A DNA stretch of 47,161 bases from a virus. Shown one piece after another: positions 1-47,161 of this stretch. A program made the translations under genes and the position numbers. Every line of letters starts with the position of its first letter. Positions within the stretch are counted from its first letter, which is position 1. Location: positions 1 through 47,161 of the IMG/VR virus record IMGVR_UViG_3300046060_000019. One strand, 5' to 3'. The notes below the pieces were generated by a model that was given only the letters and a program-made list of their open reading frames with translations, ran no database searches and was not told the DNA's origin.

Positions 1-55
1 ACTGTTCTAACTGTTCTTCCGGGTCGTCTTCGTCACCCCCCACCAGCATACCCTT
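1..55. repeat. Terminal direct repeat copy 1 (identical to 47107..47161); a circular-assembly overlap
   Basis: The first 55 nt (actgttctaactgttcttccggg...agcataccctt) recur exactly as the last 55 nt. An ORF reads in frame through the junction. Confidence 0.9.
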
Positions 56-2002: not shown

Positions 2003-3013
2003 TCAGTACGCCGAAGTCTGACCGTTCACCAGTGTTCCCTGAACGTCGTACCCGGCGCTCGGGTCCACCAGCGCCCGAAGTTCGACGTTTTCAGCGATTA
2101 GGTCCTGTTCGTTCAACTGGGCGTCGTGGGTGTTAATGGTACACCGGGGGGCGTCCAGTTCCAGCGAATACTGGGTGGACGTGTCAGCGATTGTCTCGGG
2201 GCTGACCCACTTCGCGTTCACGCCACCCTCGTACAGTTCGTCTTCCGGGCCGGTCGCCCCGGCGGACCCCCAGAACTTTTCCATGACGTTCGTGTTCTCG
2301 AAGTCCAGCGTGGCTTCAAACACTATCTCGCGGGTTCCGACGGTCATTTTCGCCGGGGTACGGCCCCCTCGCGTGTGCGGGGTCAGGTTGTTCGTGACAC
2401 TGACCGTCAGGTCCCGAAGGTCCACTGTTCGGTCGGTCCCGAACAGCGTGTACGTGGCGTCGTGGTACACCAGCGCCCGAAGGTTGTCGTAAGCCGGGGT
2501 TGACGCCGAGACAGAACCGTCCGGCTCTTTCGCGGGCATGTCCATGGACATGGACAGCCGCTCGCCGCTGGAATGGGACAGTTCCAGACTTTCGACGCCG
2601 ACACCCGTGTGGCGAACGGCGTCCACGTTCCCCAGCCCCAGTTCCACGGCCAACGATGGAAGTTTGTCGTCCGTGGTGAAGGTGTGGGTCCCGACTTCGT
2701 CCGTTCCGTCGCCGTCGGGGTCAGACGTGGTGACGCTCGTACTTCCGAACGCCGCCTTCAGTAACAGCCCTATCGCTTCGGGCGTTACCGGCATGTCCAG
2801 TGACCCGTCGTCGGTGAATTCCCCGGCCACCGCCGAGTGGGTGTCACGGCCCCGAGTCGTGGACAGGAAAATCGGGTTGTTATCACCCGAGAACCCGTCA
2901 CTGACGACGTTCAGGAATTCGGACGGGGAAGCCCCGTCGCCGTAACTGGATTCTTCGGCTATACCGGCATAGCCAAAGAACGACTGTCCGTCTTCACCGA
3001 TTGTTTGTGACAT
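2003..3013 (-). CDS. Major tail (tail tube) protein candidate
   Basis: 336-aa ORF located after the connector/terminator genes and before the chaperone and tape measure on the circle. Sequence style resembles siphovirus tube proteins (FGYAGIAEESSYG...). Confidence 0.55.
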   Translation of the reverse strand: MSQTIGEDGQSFFGYAGIAEESSYGDGASPSEFLNVVSDGFSGDNNPIFLSTTRGRDTHSAVAGEFTDDGSLDMPVTPEAIGLLLKAAFGSTSVTTSDPDGDGTDEVGTHTFTTDDKLPSLAVELGLGNVDAVRHTGVGVESLELSHSSGERLSMSMDMPAKEPDGSVSASTPAYDNLRALVYHDATYTLFGTDRTVDLRDLTVSVTNNLTPHTRGGRTPAKMTVGTREIVFEATLDFENTNVMEKFWGSAGATGPEDELYEGGVNAKWVSPETIADTSTQYSLELDAPRCTINTHDAQLNEQDLIAENVELRALVDPSAGYDVQGTLVNGQTSAY

Positions 3014-4748: not shown

Positions 4749-5177
4749 TTAGAATTCGTCTATCAACGCCCCGCTTCGGGCGTCCGTGTCGGTCGCTTTG
4801 CCTTCAGTTTCGGCTTCGCTGTCCGCCACGTCGCTGACGTTCGACCACTCGTTGAACTTCGTGTGGGCCTTGTCGTCGGCTGTCCGGGTCCGGTCAGTGG
4901 ACCCGTCGCCGCCGTTGAAGTTACGAGCGTAACTGAAGGTGGATTCGCTGACGGCTAACCACGCCGTCGCTTCCACTAATAGGTCGTGAAGGCTGGAAGC
5001 GTCGGGAAGGTCCGTCTTCCCTGTCTCGTTCTTCCACCACGACTGAACGCTGTTCGTGGCCCGTTCAATCGCCCCGTCAAAGTCCCGTTGGGAACCTTTG
5101 TCGGGGATTTTGATTAGGTCCTGAACGTCGTCGGTCAGACACCAGTGGTCGTCCGATAGGCTGGTTACTTCAGCCAT
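4749..5177 (-). CDS. Head-tail connector (gp6-like) candidate
   Basis: Track ORF 4749..5204 trimmed to the ATG at 5177 (ATGGCTGA overlap with the upstream stop). Call is by position. Confidence 0.4.
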   Translation of the reverse strand: MAEVTSLSDDHWCLTDDVQDLIKIPDKGSQRDFDGAIERATNSVQSWWKNETGKTDLPDASSLHDLLVEATAWLAVSESTFSYARNFNGGDGSTDRTRTADDKAHTKFNEWSNVSDVADSEAETEGKATDTDARSGALIDEF

Positions 5178-5511
5178 TTCGACCACCCAGCCGACCGTCG
5201 TCACTGAACAGCGCCGTTACCACTTCGCTGGGCGGGGCGACTTCCGCCCGTTTCCAGACGTAATACGCCCCTGTCGCTTCCAGCGTGACGAACAGGATAA
5301 TCGCCCAGATTTTCAGTGTCGCTATCGCGGCTTCACTGGGGTTCCACGCCGCCGAGAACACCATTATCAGGGCTGACCCAGCCACGAACAGCGCCGTGAC
5401 GTGTCCGGGGTGACAGCGTCGCGGATTGATTAACTGAAGGTACACGGCGGCGAATACGCCGAACATCCCAGCGAACGTACCGAACCAGTCAATCATTGTC
5501 GTCAGTTCCAT
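5170..5511 (-). CDS. Membrane protein (about 108-113 aa, 3-4 TM segments)
   Basis: Hydrophobic throughout (FGTFAGMFGVFAAVYLQLI..., IWAIILFVTLEATGAYYVW). An alternative start at 5496 gives an ATGATTGA overlap. Confidence 0.6.
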   Translation of the reverse strand: MELTTMIDWFGTFAGMFGVFAAVYLQLINPRRCHPGHVTALFVAGSALIMVFSAAWNPSEAAIATLKIWAIILFVTLEATGAYYVWKRAEVAPPSEVVTALFSDDGRLGGRNG

Positions 5512-5743
5512 GTTCGCTTTCCTCGTTGTCGTCGGACCCGGTTTCTATGCCGACGGACACCGGGAAATTCTCGGTTAGCATGTCCACGCCCAGCAGAATC
5601 CCGATTAGGAACAGTAGCAGTTCCACCCTGACGACGGTCAGGGGTAGTGCGGGTAGCCAAAAATGGGCTAACAGCGTGAACGTCGCCGCTAACCCACCGA
5701 CGGCTTTCGCCGCCTTTGTCCAGCGTATTCCGTTTGTATCCAT
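5489..5743 (-). CDS. Membrane protein (84 aa) with an acidic tail
   Basis: Two hydrophobic segments (GGLAATFTLLAHFWLPALPL, LLLFLIGILLGV) followed by GSDDNEESEHGTDDND. Confidence 0.6.
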   Translation of the reverse strand: MDTNGIRWTKAAKAVGGLAATFTLLAHFWLPALPLTVVRVELLLFLIGILLGVDMLTENFPVSVGIETGSDDNEESEHGTDDND

Positions 5744-5778
5744 GCGTGGTCATGCTCGTTTCCCCGGTGTCGTCCGGG

Positions 5779-5988
5779 TCACTCGGCGTTGTCACCCCGT
5801 TCGTCCAGCGCGTCTTTTACCGTCGTTCGGTCCCTGAAGTCCACTTCCGCGTCGCGGACTTCCGACAGGTGACCGTCGGCGTCCCCGGCCTGAATCGCGT
5901 TTACGACGGCTTCATAGCCGTCGTCGTCACGAACGAATCCGTCGGGGTCGAATTCATCCGGGGCGTCCCCGCCCTCGTTCAGTTTCCC
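5779..5988 (-). CDS. Start-less acidic ORF reachable by a -1 frameshift from 5979..6326 (about 66-codon extension)
   Basis: Slippery heptamer G GGA AAC (plus 5982..5988) abuts the 0-frame stop. The -1 frame reads KLNEGGDAPDEFDPDGFVRDDDGYEAV...DERGDNAE* and has no ATG, GTG or TTG near its 5' end. Confidence 0.5.
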   Translation of the reverse strand, partial: GKLNEGGDAPDEFDPDGFVRDDDGYEAVVNAIQAGDADGHLSEVRDAEVDFRDRTTVKDALDERGDNAE

Positions 5989-6326
5989 GAACCACCCCCG
6001 TCGTCGCCGTCGCCGTTCGTGTCGCTGTCGGTGGTGGCGTCCTCGCCGTTCGTGTCGCTGTCGGTGGTGGCGTCCTCGTCGTCCGTGTCGCCCACCAGTT
6101 CGTCCCGCGTCGGGCCGGACTGGTTGGTGTTGATAGCGGAAGACGGCTGTTCAGTCTCGCCGTCGTGGTCCTCGGGCGGGTCTTCCCACCCACGGGTCCG
6201 GTAGAACCGTTCCAGTTCCGCCGGAACCTCGTACATGCCGGGACCCGCATAGCGGGTGTCCGACTGGTAGTCCACGAATTCGGCGTCGTTCGGCCACTGA
6301 AGCGTGACCGTGGATTTTCCAGACAT
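5979..6326 (-). CDS. Acidic repeat protein downstream of the capsid gene (115 aa)
   Basis: Track ORF containing the duplicated 11-aa unit GEDATTDSDTN. Confidence 0.65.
   Translation of the reverse strand: MSGKSTVTLQWPNDAEFVDYQSDTRYAGPGMYEVPAELERFYRTRGWEDPPEDHDGETEQPSSAINTNQSGPTRDELVGDTDDEDATTDSDTNGEDATTDSDTNGDGDDGGGSGN
6011..6076. repeat. Perfect 33-bp tandem duplication (2 copies)
   Basis: cgccgttcgtgtcgctgtcggtggtggcgtcct occurs at 6011..6043 and again at 6044..6076. Confidence 0.85.
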
Positions 6327-7985: not shown

Positions 7986-9788
7986 TTACTGTTCAGCCTC
8001 GCCCCTGGCGGTGGCGGCCACGAACGCCCCAGCCGGGTTGTCCTCGGTTACGAAGTCCGCCGGGTCTTCGTCGTGCTTTTCAGCCATGAATTCCGCCGCG
8101 CTGTCGTGGTCAGACGAACGGAATTCCATTTTTTCGTCCAGCGTCATGGCGGACTCGGCGACCGCTTCCACGTCGTCGTCGCCCGCGCCGGACGACCCGC
8201 CGCCACCCGACACGCCGCCGTCAGCGCCGTCGCCGGAGGCGTGGGCCTTCCCGTACTCGGAACGCGCCTGTTCGCTTTCCAGAATTTCGGTCGCTCGCTG
8301 TCCGTCCATGGCCTGAAGTTCCGCCGGGGACTTCCCCGTCAGTTCTTCAGCCCGGTCGTCCACGGAATCGGCGTCCGTGTCGTACTTCGGAAGCGACGCT
8401 TCTTTCGCCGCCACGTCTTCCCGAAGGTCAGCGGTGTGTTCGTCAACGAGCGCCTGAACGCCGTCTTCAGCATTCAGGTCAACGTCGTGGAAGTCGGCCA
8501 ACGCTTCGGCGGCGTCGGCCTGTTCCGCGACGACTTCCGCTCGTTCTGTCAGTTCGTCCAGTTCAGCGTCTTCGTCCACGTCCACCCCAGCGGCGGACGC
8601 CACGGCCTGAAGGCGCTGAATCCGGTCGTCTTTGTGTTCGACCACTTCAGCCGCGCCTTCCAGCACGGCGTCGGGGTCGTCCACATCTTGAAGTTGATTT
8701 AGGTCCTTCATGTCTCGTTCTCGCGCTTGTTTCGCCATGGCCCGAAGGGACGACGTGTACGCCGTCGCCGGAGCCGTCGGGGACTGTTCAGCCAACGAAG
8801 CCGCTGTCTGAAGCGGCGGCATGGTCCCCGGCCCCGCGCCGGACACCGCCCCCGTCTTCACGAAGTCCACCTGTCGCACTGTCTCGGCGGTGACCACCAG
8901 CCGTTCCTTCCCGCCGGATTCTACCGTCTTCGGCCGACCGTCGTCGTTCGTATGAAGACGAAGGTCACCAACGATAGAATAGTCCTTAGCGGCCAACTGA
9001 CCGTTCTGGGCGGCGTCCACCGCCTTGTCGTTGGTCAGTTCGTAATCGGTCATAACGAGCGACCGCCCGTCTTCCGACAGGGCGAAGTCAGTCGCCTGAC
9101 CGACCGTAAGAAGGTCCAGTTCCGACGCAACGGGAACAGTGTCTTCGTGAAGGCTGTTCCCGTGGTCCATCCCGAGTTTCGGCGGCTCGCCCGCCTGAAT
9201 CCCGTCCGTCACGTTCTGGAACGTTCGCGGGATGGAATCTTCAGGAACGTGTACCGGCGTCGGTTGTCCGTTCAGATACAGCGTGTGGTCACCAGCCGCC
9301 CAGACAACGCCCGTCAGGTCGTCCACGCCGTCTGGGTTTGCCCCAGACACGGACGCCCTGAACGGGCTGTCAGCGCCGTCAGACGCCACCGCCGCCATAG
9401 CGGAAGCGTCGGCCACGTTGTCCCCGCTAATTTCCCACGACGACAGTGAATCTTCTCGGTGACCAACCATCCGGTTGGAACCTTCCGATTTAGGGACCCA
9501 CGCGGGGCCTTCGTCGTCGGGGTTCTCCCGATACACCATGATTAGGTACGCCGGGTTCTCGGTGGTCCCTTCCACGGTGAAGTCACCGTCAATCCGGTCG
9601 CTGAATGACCCGTCAGTGGTCACGTCAACCACGCGCCCCCGAACAGGGCCGCCGCTGGACCCCCAGCGGACGGTGTCACCGACCGAGAATTGGCTACCTT
9701 CAGCGACAAGGGACTGAAGGGCGTCCTCGACACCCTCGGCTGTCCCGCCCAGCGTCAGGCGTTCGACGTTCTGTATTGTTAGGTTCAC
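7986..9788 (-). CDS. Prohead protease (Mu gpI-like) fused to an acidic coiled-coil scaffold domain
   Basis: The central region (...PKLGMDHGNSLHE...KDYSIVGDLRL...VDFVKTGAVSG) resembles Mu-I type proteases. The C-terminal half is Ala/Glu/Asp-rich and helical. The start is GTG. Confidence 0.5.
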   Translation of the reverse strand: MNLTIQNVERLTLGGTAEGVEDALQSLVAEGSQFSVGDTVRWGSSGGPVRGRVVDVTTDGSFSDRIDGDFTVEGTTENPAYLIMVYRENPDDEGPAWVPKSEGSNRMVGHREDSLSSWEISGDNVADASAMAAVASDGADSPFRASVSGANPDGVDDLTGVVWAAGDHTLYLNGQPTPVHVPEDSIPRTFQNVTDGIQAGEPPKLGMDHGNSLHEDTVPVASELDLLTVGQATDFALSEDGRSLVMTDYELTNDKAVDAAQNGQLAAKDYSIVGDLRLHTNDDGRPKTVESGGKERLVVTAETVRQVDFVKTGAVSGAGPGTMPPLQTAASLAEQSPTAPATAYTSSLRAMAKQARERDMKDLNQLQDVDDPDAVLEGAAEVVEHKDDRIQRLQAVASAAGVDVDEDAELDELTERAEVVAEQADAAEALADFHDVDLNAEDGVQALVDEHTADLREDVAAKEASLPKYDTDADSVDDRAEELTGKSPAELQAMDGQRATEILESEQARSEYGKAHASGDGADGGVSGGGGSSGAGDDDVEAVAESAMTLDEKMEFRSSDHDSAAEFMAEKHDEDPADFVTEDNPAGAFVAATARGEAEQ

Positions 9789-44423: not shown

Positions 44424-46736
44424 TTACCTGTTTGAGCCGTACTGTTGTCTCGTTTCTCGTTGTAGCTGTTCCGCCGCCCGTCGGGACCACTGATACGGGT
44501 TGTTCTGAACGTCCCCGCTTGCGTCAACGGATACATTCACGCCGCCCTGAATCACTTGTTGGGACTGTTCCTGACGCCGCTGTTGGATAGCGGCGGTGTC
44601 GGTGGACCGCGTTTCCGCCTGAACAGCGTTATTATCCAGCGAAACCGTGTCCAGTGTCCCCACGTCCGGGGCGTCCACGCCGGGTATTTCGCTGACGGAA
44701 TCGGCCACGTCGTCCAGCGTGGACAGAAACTCGTTCAGGGCCGTGACCACCGAGTTAATCAGTCCTTCGACGGCGCTGGAAGCGATACTGGAAATGGCGT
44801 TGAAGACGCTGACAAACGTGTTGTAAACGGCGTTCAGTTTGGATTCCACCAGCGCCAACAGCCACGTCAGCCCCCGGATAGCGGCGTTTGGGACTGTCTC
44901 GGTGAAGAACGTCACCAACTGGGCAGACAGGAAAGACAACCCGGACATGACGAACGCGGGAATATCGTTCGTGAAGAACTTCAGGAACGCCGCGCCGAGA
45001 CTTTCCAGCCCCGACACGACAGCCCCCCACGTATTTCCAAAGGCGTCCGCGAATACCCCCATGACTTCCATGAAAGCGTCCGCCGCGCCCTGAAGGTCAC
45101 CTTTTACCAGTTCACCGATAGCGGCCCCAACTCCGGCGATTAGCGGGAACAGCCCCAGCGTCAGGACCGAGATTAAGGTTAACAAGTGACTTGTCAGTTC
45201 CGACCCCAGCATATCCCCGAGTGCGGCCCCAGCGTCACCGACAGCGCCCATGATGCCTGTTATCTGTAACAACCGGACCACGACGCCGCCGATAGCGGCT
45301 CCAAGTGCAACCGCCCCGGCCACAACCGCCGCCGTGGACCCGGCGAGCGTGGACAGCGCCCCAGACAGCCACGTCGTCGCGTTCGCCAACGCCCCAGTGA
45401 CGGTGGACGCTGAGGTGAAATGCGTGATTAGTGACGACAAATTCGCCAATATTCCGCTTCCAGTCAAGAACATCAAGATACTGGACAGGGCGGACGCCAA
45501 CTTCACCAAGACAGGCGCGAGAACCAAACCCGCGACTGTGATTCCCTGAAGGGTCCCCGGCATGTCGTTTACCGTTTCCATGAACCCCGTAGCCGCTCGT
45601 ATCAGCGCCGTCAGTGCGGGAAGGACCACCTTCGCCGCGGTGGTCCCGAATTCCAACAGCACTGGGGCCATATCAATCAGGGCGTCCAGTAGGTTCCTGA
45701 ATTCAGGTTCTAACTCGGTGACGGACTGGAATATGGCGTCCATGGCCCCCGGTCCTTCCGACATTAGGAACCCGAAGAATTCCCGCGCCAACGGTAGGGC
45801 GTTGCGGGCTAAGTCGAACATGAATCCTGTTAATGCCGGTAGGACTTCCATCATAGCGGCCCCGAATTCACGGAGGGCGTCGCGGAACTGCTCGGTCCCC
45901 CCGACGGCGTCTATCATACGCCGAACGAGCGTCGGAATGGCGTTCAGCGCGTCTTCAATTAGCGGGATGAACTGTTCCCCAAACTGACTGATAATCGGGA
46001 CAAGCTCGTCCTTTAGGTCGGACACCGCGTTCTTCAGCGCCCCGCCCGCCGTCGTCGCTTCTTCCAGTCGCTTCTTTTTCTTCCGAAGTTGGTCCAGCCG
46101 GGCCTGTTCCTGTTTATTCAAGGAGCCTGTTTGTTCTTTCAGGCTTTCGTACTGGGCTATCAGCCGTTCCGTCTGGGCCAATTCTTCTTTGTTCTGTTTG
46201 GCCTTTTTCTGACCGAACGCGAGGACACCTGACCCAACGATAGCCCCGAACGCGCCCGCAAGTGCGGCGGCCCCGGCGGTCAGGGCGACCAACAGCGCCG
46301 ATAACGGGGCCAATACCGTAAGCAACGTCAGTATCGCCGGTATTAGCGACAGTTGTGTGGTGACAGACCACTGGCGGAACGAGAGGTTCGCGCCGCTTGC
46401 CGACGCCGCCAACGCGGTCAGCGCCCCGGAAGCGATACTGGACTGGGTCGTCGTTTCACCAAGTTCGTCATTGAATTGGTCCATGGCTGTCTGGGCGTAC
46501 AATCCCGTCCGAGCCACGTCGCCCACGTCGTCTTCCAGTTCGTCCAGTGCGGACTGAAGAATCATGGACTGGGTGGTAGCTTCCCCGAATTCGTCCGATA
46601 GTTGGTCCAACGCCGTCTGACCTATCGCCGCGTCGTCGGACAGCCCAGTAATTTCGTCGCCGACTTCGTCAATAGACTGTTCCGCCGATTCAGTCAGCGC
46701 GTTGATTATGACCCGGACGGTCGCTGATTCAGCCAT
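44424..46736 (-). CDS. Tape measure protein
   Basis: 770 aa, Ala/Leu/Gly-rich, with long helical and hydrophobic stretches. It follows the chaperone pair and precedes Dit. Confidence 0.8.
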   Translation of the reverse strand: MAESATVRVIINALTESAEQSIDEVGDEITGLSDDAAIGQTALDQLSDEFGEATTQSMILQSALDELEDDVGDVARTGLYAQTAMDQFNDELGETTTQSSIASGALTALAASASGANLSFRQWSVTTQLSLIPAILTLLTVLAPLSALLVALTAGAAALAGAFGAIVGSGVLAFGQKKAKQNKEELAQTERLIAQYESLKEQTGSLNKQEQARLDQLRKKKKRLEEATTAGGALKNAVSDLKDELVPIISQFGEQFIPLIEDALNAIPTLVRRMIDAVGGTEQFRDALREFGAAMMEVLPALTGFMFDLARNALPLAREFFGFLMSEGPGAMDAIFQSVTELEPEFRNLLDALIDMAPVLLEFGTTAAKVVLPALTALIRAATGFMETVNDMPGTLQGITVAGLVLAPVLVKLASALSSILMFLTGSGILANLSSLITHFTSASTVTGALANATTWLSGALSTLAGSTAAVVAGAVALGAAIGGVVVRLLQITGIMGAVGDAGAALGDMLGSELTSHLLTLISVLTLGLFPLIAGVGAAIGELVKGDLQGAADAFMEVMGVFADAFGNTWGAVVSGLESLGAAFLKFFTNDIPAFVMSGLSFLSAQLVTFFTETVPNAAIRGLTWLLALVESKLNAVYNTFVSVFNAISSIASSAVEGLINSVVTALNEFLSTLDDVADSVSEIPGVDAPDVGTLDTVSLDNNAVQAETRSTDTAAIQQRRQEQSQQVIQGGVNVSVDASGDVQNNPYQWSRRAAEQLQRETRQQYGSNR

Positions 46737-46737
46737 G

Positions 46738-47106
46738 TTAGTTGTTCAGTTCAGTGTCCGCCTGTTCCCGCTTGTCCCGTAGTTCGCCCAGTCGTTCCAG
46801 TTGACCTTCCGGCGACGGCGTCTGTTGGCCCGCCTGTTCCATGGATTCCCGAAGTTTTGCCCGGCTTTCCTGACTATCGTGAAGGTTGTCCTTTTGCTGG
46901 GGCGACGCCGCCCCCGCCGTCGTCGCGCCCTGTTCGGCCTGTTCTTTTTGCTCGTTCTGGAATTTGACCGTCGCTTGTCGGACCGCCGCGTCGGTCCAGA
47001 ACGCTTCCAGCGCCGTCTGGTGTTGTAACCCCAGTATTTCATGTGGACGCTCGCCGTATTTCTCGCCTATCAGCCCGGCCTGAATCGCTATCGGGTTGTC
47101 AACGAA
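46738..47106 (-). CDS. Start-less ORF in the +1 frame of the chaperone gene (candidate frameshift extension, 122 codons)
   Basis: Reads FVDNPIAIQAGLIGEKYGERPHEILGLQ...DKREQADTELNN* with no ATG, GTG or TTG near the 5' end. It overlaps the chaperone stop (47099..47101) and ends 1 nt before the tape measure ATG. Confidence 0.5.
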   Translation of the reverse strand, partial: FVDNPIAIQAGLIGEKYGERPHEILGLQHQTALEAFWTDAAVRQATVKFQNEQKEQAEQGATTAGAASPQQKDNLHDSQESRAKLRESMEQAGQQTPSPEGQLERLGELRDKREQADTELNN

Positions 47107-47161
47107 ACTGTTCTAACTGTTCTTCCGGGTCGTCTTCGTCACCCCCCACCAGCATACCCTT
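47099..47161 (-). CDS. C-terminal end of the chaperone ORF begun at 448 (continuation across the circular junction)
   Basis: Reads ...KGMLVGGDEDDPEEQLEQFR*. Positions 47107..47161 duplicate 1..55. Confidence 0.6.
   Translation of the reverse strand, partial: KGMLVGGDEDDPEEQLEQFR
47107..47161. repeat. Terminal direct repeat copy 2 (identical to 1..55)
   Basis: Exact 55-nt identity with the window start. Confidence 0.9.

Follow-up and report, generated by a model that had tools for sequence, protein, structure and literature searches.

Comparative evidence for a probable programmed -1 ribosomal frameshift in the gene following the capsid gene of a haloarchaeal virus

Background

In haloarchaeal tailed viruses, programmed -1 ribosomal frameshifting has been predicted in the g/gt tail-chaperone genes of HCTV-1, HCTV-2, HCTV-5, HVTV-1 and Hardycor1, at canonical X_XXY_YYZ heptamers that read G_GGA_AAC in HCTV-1 (PMC5009743) and G_GGA_AAT in Hardycor1. 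We describe here another gene that probably uses this type of recoding. It lies directly after the major capsid gene in the IMG/VR virus record IMGVR_UViG_3300046060_000019, of which positions 1 to 47161 were analysed (this whole stretch of 47,161 nucleotides is called the window hereafter), and its shift region is entirely on the minus strand. As in the g/gt genes, a canonical heptamer, identical to that of HCTV-1, would yield a structural-module protein in two forms, one short and one extended at its C-terminus, and in both cases the support comes from comparative genomics. Unlike the g/gt genes, however, the window gene is separated by several genes from the tail tube gene (2003..3013) downstream of it, and is distant from the tape-measure gene (44424..46736), in agreement with an earlier note on this DNA, made from the letters alone, which had placed the site outside the tail-chaperone position. 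It is not part of an open reading frame (ORF) pair between the major tail protein and tape-measure genes, the arrangement used by Xu, Hendrix and Duda (2004) to recognise G/GT. Moreover, its protein family is unrelated and its heptamer abuts the 0-frame stop.

Among bacteriophages, frameshifting extends head proteins in T7/T3 (10A/10B), Lactobacillus phage A2, Listeria A118/A500 and, by a +1 shift, PSA (PMC5009743). There, as is proposed here, a minority of ribosomes changes frame towards the 3' end of a gene of the head module, which provides a fraction of the protein with an extra domain, and related phages obtain the same extension by in-frame decoding (PMC5009743), which parallels the single ORFs of the HHTV-1-like relatives described below. 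In contrast, those shifts occur within the major capsid gene of bacterial viruses and often add an immunoglobulin-like domain, whereas the window gene is a separate small ORF of an archaeal virus, and the domain predicted to be added is a small helical bundle for which no fold match was detected.

The combination of signals also recalls E. coli dnaX (tau/gamma), in which two products per gene are made with the help of a Shine-Dalgarno (SD) element, a heptamer and a downstream hairpin; an SD-like element and a hairpin may have similar parts in the window gene. In dnaX, the SD lies 10 nucleotides (nt) upstream, the 3' hairpin is strong and essential, and the shifted product is the shorter one. 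The window gene differs in having its SD-like element 2-6 nt upstream and a hairpin that is weak and not conserved, and its shifted product would be the longer one.

For archaea, a -1 frameshift has been shown experimentally in fucA1, the alpha-L-fucosidase gene of Sulfolobus solfataricus, at A_AAA_AAT (PMC8211752). As with the window gene, the shift takes place on a heptamer and full-length orthologues in relatives are single ORFs (PMC8211752), but fucA1 is a cellular crenarchaeal enzyme gene of which only the full-length product is functional, whereas the window site is viral, haloarchaeal and predicted. According to reviews, fucA1 is the sole experimentally demonstrated archaeal -1 frameshift, and the few viral cases predicted all concern tail-chaperone genes (PMC8211752, PMC5009743); the literature searched yielded no archaeal virus for which frameshifting in the head module had been reported. 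The mechanism proposed below is of a known type, and its gene context is new for archaeal viruses in that literature. It would represent a second, independent gene context for archaeal viral -1 frameshifting, beyond the tail-chaperone genes.

An orthologue of the window gene is known in HHTV-1, a cultivable Haloarcula siphovirus of the family Madisaviridae and the sole match among deposited phage genomes. Immediately downstream of its capsid gene, a single ORF of 138 amino acids (aa) encodes the hypothetical protein gp22 (AGM11278.1), whose BLASTP alignment (E 1e-15) covers both parts of the gene that is split in the window. The position is the same, as is the layout in an N-terminal domain (N-domain), an acidic linker and a C-terminal domain (C-domain), but gp22 has neither the heptamer nor an internal stop.

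Results and discussion

The shift site and the open -1 frame

The features of the locus are collected in Table 1. The capsid region matches HHTV-1 major capsid gene 21 at 64.7% of nucleotides; the capsid gene closes with its own TAA, and the following ORF, called ORF1, opens at its own ATG (6326), 3 bases past that stop. No similarity of the ORF1 product to capsid proteins was found in Pfam or PHROGs. At its 3' end, ORF1 reads ...GGT GGT TCG GGA AAC TGA. The earlier note had singled out the 115-aa ORF with this ending, and the canonical heptamer set directly against the stop, and both are present on the minus strand as it described. The -1 frame reads GGG AAA CTG AAC GAG... and stays open for 67 codons after AAA (about 66 had been counted before), up to a TGA at 5781..5779, with the predicted peptide LNEGGDAPDEF...DERGDNAE. 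This extension had been called acidic and rich in GC at third codon positions. Indeed, Asp and Glu make up 33% of its residues, and its GC content by codon position is 0.81/0.37/0.75, against 0.64/0.41/0.77 in the capsid gene. The lack of a start codon at the beginning of the frame was also recovered, ATG, GTG and TTG being absent between 54 codons upstream of the heptamer and codon 48 downstream of it, and the unused space of about 200 nt proved to be a gap of 235 nt without a called gene (5744..5978) if the extension is ignored.

Table 1. Positions of the predicted frameshift locus and of candidate RNA signals in the window
Feature	Position	Strand	Remarks
Major capsid protein gene, 371 aa	6330..7445	-	Directly upstream; phrog_1005 (major head protein), E 8e-13
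ORF1, 0 frame, 115 aa	5979..6326	-	Folded N-domain of ~50 aa, then disordered acidic linker
SD-like GGGGGTGGT (GGNGGTGRN in relatives)	5991..5999	-	2 nt upstream of heptamer; GGTG in 11/11 genomes
Slippery heptamer G_GGA_AAC, proposed -1 shift site	5982..5988 (read 5988..5982)	-	X_XXY_YYZ phase
0-frame UGA stop	5979..5981	-	Abuts heptamer; ends short product; TGA invariant in 11/11 genomes
-1-frame extension, 67 codons (LNEGG...DNAE) + TGA	5779..5982	-	Linker end and helical C-domain of ~50 aa
Small GC hairpin CG.GGGCG-GGGA-CGCCC.CG	5959..5977	-	Candidate 3' stimulator; outer pairs +4 nt, core +7 nt after heptamer
Two further hairpins	5896..5958	-	Inside extension coding sequence

The mere presence of the heptamer in the window is within chance: GGGAAAC occurs 11 times, for 14.3 +/- 3.6 expected, and since it is not enriched, its count was dropped as evidence. 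The significance of the heptamer comes from its phase, position and conservation. Nine in-frame X_XXY_YYZ sites (Y = A/T) were found among the ~51 ORFs, and a single one of the nine, that at 5988..5982, opens a -1 frame running beyond the 0-frame stop.

Conservation of the shift site

All relatives sharing this arrangement, hereafter the frameshift group, were retrieved from a protein database and its contigs. They comprise 13 split-type homologues; contig DNA was available for 10, which together with the window form the 11 genomes compared throughout, and the other 3 entered as protein sequences only. The assemblies are independent and derive from JGI, ENA and Logan samples. Loci L002-L030 were obtained from hypersaline sites, JGI 3300046055 and SRR18572991 being two of the sources.

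The sequence CGGGAAACTGA is identical in 11/11 genomes, all of them distinct. In relatives, the codon preceding GGA is either TCG or ACG, and its third-position G is kept in all cases. The 3 protein-only homologues likewise end with SGN, and the ORF1 stop is found at the identical place in 14/14 proteins. The background is far more variable: capsid proteins of the frameshift group are 77-95% identical, only 29% of fourfold sites and 66% of twofold codons are invariant in the capsid gene (calculated on the 6 genomes having complete capsid genes), the lineages have reached ~50% divergence at fourfold sites, and the linker is almost unalignable on both sides of the shift motif. Because tcG, ggA, aaC and TGA are invariant against this diverged fourfold and twofold background, the comparison shows a constraint acting at the nucleotide level. 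Even at the level of conservation of the folded domains, we calculate P ~0.004 for 7 invariant spacer bases.

Fast change of the acidic ORF1 linker around the invariant site is illustrated by an exact tandem repeat of 33 nt (6012..6077, minus strand; GAGGACGCCACCACCGACAGCGACACGAACGGC twice, peptide EDATTDSDTNG twice), which is missing in the closest relative, L002.

The question arises as to which bases of the site are used. In a variant of the frameshift model, a single transfer RNA (tRNA) slips: either tRNA-Asn moves from AAC to AAA while UGA waits in the A site, in which case only A_AAC_UGA would matter, or tRNA-Gly slips while the A site is empty, which would leave Lys at the junction. Such a 'shifty stop' would suit the UGA that abuts the heptamer in all relatives and the lack of a strong conserved 3' structure, and shift sites next to a stop codon are well known. 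However, the heptamer keeps its initial G, which occupies a fourfold third position (TCG or ACG), as well as its GG in all genomes, and this argues for re-pairing of both codons. We consider single-tRNA slippage unlikely, without dismissing it.

Translation and selection of the extension

The -1 frame is open for 62-69 codons in all relatives, and contains the conserved sequence ...F(D/N)PxxFVRxxxGYEAVVxAIQAGDADGHLSEVRxAEVDFRDRTSVKNALDERG.... The proportion of variable columns at codon positions 1/2/3 of this frame is 0.34/0.38/0.81, dN/dS (the ratio of non-synonymous to synonymous substitution rates) is ~0.35 for the extension versus 0.39 for the N-domain, and indels occur in multiples of three, starting right after TGA. 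Given this third-position-biased variation, the dN/dS value and the in-frame indels, the extension is, as far as patterns of divergence can tell, translated and selected, and a sequencing error or a dead pseudogene is thereby ruled out.

Indeed, a locus without any recoding has to be considered, since single-ORF relatives exist and a 1-nt sequencing or assembly indel, or a decaying pseudogene with an unexpressed C-terminal half, would look exactly like the window, which taken alone could not exclude it. The earlier note had named such an indel as a reason to give up its proposal. However, the identical frame structure is found in 11 independent assemblies from different projects, and the out-of-frame half keeps its low dN/dS, its third-position variation and an intact ORF across the fourfold divergence given above. 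The shared frame structure and the selection data effectively refute the indel and pseudogene readings, which we hold to be hardly credible. The same note had suggested looking in relatives for the heptamer together with a start-less downstream frame: the 11 genomes share GGGAAAC TGA and an open, start-less, selected -1 frame, and its proposal of a -1 frameshift finds support in this comparison.

Gene callers left the same ~230-nt gap in every relative. As every one of them missed the 200-nt extension, a conserved C-domain is systematically missing from the protein catalogues of this virus group. On the opposite strand, a 162-codon antisense ORF with a third-position GC of 0.82 spans the shift region (5716..6204, plus strand); it is in all likelihood no gene, but one of the shadow ORFs that are common in GC-rich coding DNA.

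Single-ORF relatives and the protein family

A profile search of a large protein collection returned 69 members of the gp22-like family, which is nameless in Pfam and PHROGs (zero hits). The window gene shares with this family the homology of both the N- and C-domains and the position immediately downstream of the capsid gene. Thirteen of the 69 members end with Ser/Thr-Gly-Asn and a stop, like ORF1 of the window, and about 50 are single ORFs of 120-170 aa made of an N-domain, an acidic linker and a C-domain. A telling case is L012, whose single ORF of 152 aa lacks the heptamer and reads GGT GAC AGT TCG TCC GGC GAC in its place. At the C-terminus of the capsid protein, L012 is 70-82% identical to the frameshift group, for 74-96% within the group. 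Because L012 is fused and its capsid C-terminus is as close to group members as many of these are to each other, the two halves are, by homology, one polypeptide in close relatives. The comparative support is unusually clean in this respect, as it combines an invariant 11-nt core, an 11-nt entry window (see below) and the occurrence of frameshifted and fused versions among close relatives.

Further searches with degenerate patterns added little. Protein-pattern scans of genome and metagenome contigs returned zero relatives. A degenerate DNA pattern of the C-domain matched one metagenome locus (L020, with a different N-domain) and none in genomes; among viral contigs, it retrieved mostly HHTV-1-like loci already seen, plus L022.

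Each of the two domains was also observed with other partners. The C-domain (FVxxxxxxVxxAIxxGxADGHLxxVxxAE...R..V..A) is a mobile module found behind at least 5 unrelated small N-domains, always after an acidic linker (L020 4437..4477; P0062, P0066, P0067, P0069, P0071-P0076, P0080, P0083, P0086 and P0087, the last on a 9.4-Mb contig). Conversely, the N-domain is joined to other C-terminal domains in P0060, P0061, P0063-65 and P0068, P0061 being in a Haloterrigena genome. Because each occurs with other partners, the N-domain and the C-domain behave, judging from these architectures, as independent modules.

Entry into the -1 frame

Across the 11 genomes, the first ATG, GTG or TTG of the -1 frame is at codon 22-48, and the start codons at codon 22-28, where present, are already within the conserved C-domain. 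In 6/11 genomes, the window among them, a -1-frame TGA is found two codons upstream of GGG, so that entry into the frame is confined there to 11 nt, TTCGGGAAACT. This points to slippage, rather than initiation, as the probable route into the -1 frame.

Alternatively, the gene may have undergone fission, followed by translational coupling. A separate C-domain protein of ~66 aa (N-terminus MNEGGDAPDEF...) would be initiated, or re-initiated, at a near-cognate CUG in the 4-nt overlap CUGA, either by ribosomes terminating at UGA or by ribosomes recruited by the SD-like GGNGGTG. CUGA resembles the AUGA and GUGA overlaps of coupled genes. The SD-like motif is kept in all genomes compared, and its spacing of 8-9 nt to CUG falls inside, or at the limit of, the range of 5-9 nt between G(A/G)GGGTGA and ATG or GTG at genuine starts of the window genome; moreover, the two domains, being found with other partners, could work as separate modules. 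However, at the position of the CUG, ATG, GTG and TTG are missing from all 11 members verified at the DNA level, although one C-to-A/G/T change would give a start and would affect no more than the final residue of a linker that is hypervariable. Fission also leaves unexplained the invariant GGGAAA 'spacer', the third-position G that precedes it and the fixed ORF1 stop in 14 proteins (the P of ~0.004 given above), and the closest relatives join both halves covalently. No paper documenting CUG starts in haloarchaea was found, in a literature search that was uninformative on this point. Initiation at CUG appears quite improbable to us.

RNA signals around the shift site

Three elements near the heptamer may stimulate slippage. 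Slippage could be stimulated from the 5' side by the SD-like GGGGGTGGT, or this motif could instead serve as ribosome-binding site in the CUG initiation just discussed. The UGA abutting the heptamer may slow the ribosome, a role suggested by the recoding literature; work of Weiss et al. in 1987 is said to bear on such stimulation by a stop adjacent to a shift site. Finally, a small GC hairpin (-12.8 kcal/mol, z = -2.7 with RNAfold) follows the heptamer, from +4 nt (outer pairs) or +7 nt (core), where 5-9 nt is the canonical distance for a stimulatory structure. Its equivalent, (G)GGCG-N4-CGCC(C), is present in 9/11 genomes, and absent or weak in L011 and L030. The earlier note had proposed a different hairpin, CGGGG-ACG-CCCCG: this inverted repeat does start 10 nt after the heptamer, but RNAfold prefers the overlapping GGGCG-GGGA-CGCCC, and the repeat is neither found in all relatives nor accompanied by covariation.

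When 90 nt downstream of the heptamer are folded, the window gives a three-hairpin structure of -43 kcal/mol (z = -4.45). Across genomes, z ranges from -5 to -0.2, with values of only -0.2 to -1.4 in L011, L028, L029 and L030. The stems of the two further hairpins coincide with a repeated peptide motif, DEF..DEF, and may be incidental. No compensatory pair changes or covariation were detected with RNAalifold on the 11 sequences. We do not claim a conserved 3' stimulator, as the strong three-hairpin fold is lost in divergent members and compensatory changes are lacking. An Rfam and tRNA scan of the window returned nothing, and specifically no viral tRNA-Asn or tRNA-Gly.

Right after the stop of the extension lies an inverted repeat, CCCGG-ACGACA-CCGGG (5760..5778, minus strand), not followed by a T-run and conserved at the same place in most relatives (L002-L011). 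In the window, it is overlapped by a second GGGAAAC (5764..5758), which is intergenic and kept only in L002.

Predicted protein structure

An AlphaFold2 model was computed from the window protein and database homologues (52 homologues used). It predicts an N-domain of four strands and a helix over residues 1-50 (predicted local distance difference test, pLDDT, ~90), a disordered acidic linker at about residues 55-121 (pLDDT <50 for most of 58-121), and a helical C-domain at residues 125-180 (pLDDT 85-90). In this model, the shift site corresponds to residue 115, in the linker just ahead of the C-domain, between two confident domains. No significant match to the protein was found in Pfam, in PHROGs, in a PDB sequence profile search or with Foldseek against PDB and BFVD. 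It may have a capsid-associated role. By analogy with the phage head proteins to which frameshifting adds a domain, we would propose, though with little confidence, that the protein is held in the head module by its N-domain and that only a fraction of the copies carries a tethered C-domain.

Proposed mechanism

Four of the features by which canonical -1 frameshifts are recognised are found here: an in-phase heptamer, an overlapping start-less -1 ORF, conservation at synonymous sites, and a selected frame homologous to that of unshifted orthologues. From this we infer that the gene following the capsid gene very probably uses a programmed -1 ribosomal frameshift. Transcriptional slippage is unlikely, since base runs are only three long.

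When the ribosome arrives at G_GGA_AAC, its P site would hold tRNA-Gly paired with GGA, and its A site tRNA-Asn paired with AAC. The majority of ribosomes would continue to UGA and release the 115-aa product, composed of the N-domain and the acidic linker. A fraction would slip back by one base, with tRNA-Gly re-pairing to GGG and tRNA-Asn to AAA in a tandem slippage, then read CUG AAC GAG... and add 67 residues, to give a 182-aa product bearing the small helical C-domain. Possible stimulators would be the UGA stop, the SD-like GGNGGTG before the heptamer and the small hairpin on its 3' side. As tandem slippage keeps the 0-frame Asn, the main junction is expected to be ...GGGSGN-LNEGG, with DGGGSGNLNEGG as junction peptide. 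The Lys junction ...SGK-LNEGG foreseen in the earlier note is the less likely outcome: it would arise only if the shift took place with an empty A site, and would yield the junction peptide DGGGSGKLNEGG. Because the shift site sits in a disordered linker between folded modules, the virus would in this way produce a single head-module protein in two forms, their ratio being fixed, while HHTV-1-like relatives would make the long form only, from an uninterrupted gene.

Several points weigh against the proposed frameshift. Every member of the frameshift group comes from metagenomes, and the support is comparative throughout. The 3' structure is inconsistently conserved across the z range reported above, and compensatory changes are absent. 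The conserved GGNGGTG precedes a near-cognate CUG, itself overlapping UGA, by 8-9 nt, a spacing that suits initiation as well, and it is nearer to the shift site than the ~10-nt optimum of dnaX. Slippage would leave tRNA-Asn on AAA with a mismatch at the wobble position, and in E. coli A_AAC shifts poorly; on archaeal ribosomes it may or may not do so.

A more specific proposal can be put forward tentatively, and we would sooner bet against it than for it. This would be the first programmed frameshift of an archaeal virus outside tail-chaperone genes, and one with a minimal signal: a eukaryote-type G_GGA_AAC set against UGA, helped by pairing of GGNGGUG with the 3' end of 16S ribosomal RNA rather than by a 3' pseudoknot, and setting the ratio of a head-associated protein with versus without a tethered helical domain. 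If true, -1 frameshifting on haloarchaeal ribosomes could be studied genetically in this locus, a compact and conserved model. A Haloferax reporter could accommodate so short a site, which bears on the question whether archaeal ribosomes shift at A_AAC in the way of eukaryotic ribosomes, and on possible effects of an adjacent stop and of anti-SD pairing.

Other features of the genome

The first 55 bases of the window (1..55) recur exactly at its end (47107..47161), so the window represents an assembly that is circular (or circularly permuted) and whose unit measures 47,106 bp; it is probably a complete viral genome. Across this junction, just upstream of the tape-measure gene, runs an acidic ORF (MATDDTSS...EEQLEQFR; from ~448 down to 1, then 47161..47099, minus strand), which ends CAG TTT CGT TGA at 47107..47099. 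The next ORF is open in the +1 frame from ~47112 to 46740 (minus strand), with an overlap of only ~14 nt. From position and sequence, the two, at about 448 to 46746 across the junction, look like a candidate tail-chaperone G/GT pair with a +1 shift at UUU_CGU_UGA, as predicted for HSTV-2.

Immediately downstream of the gene with the probable frameshift, the head/neck module encodes a pair of small proteins predicted to lie in the membrane (5170..5511 and 5489..5743, minus strand). One of them matches the PHROG holin family phrog_27838 (E 5e-8), and the pair is conserved in relatives, as genes of 84 aa and ~111 aa. Two genes upstream of the capsid gene, a 600-aa protein (7986..9788, minus strand) gives at residues 37-83 a hit to the Hva1_TUDOR domain (PF11160, E 8e-7, above cut-off), followed by a long acidic region, which is unusual for a head-module protein.

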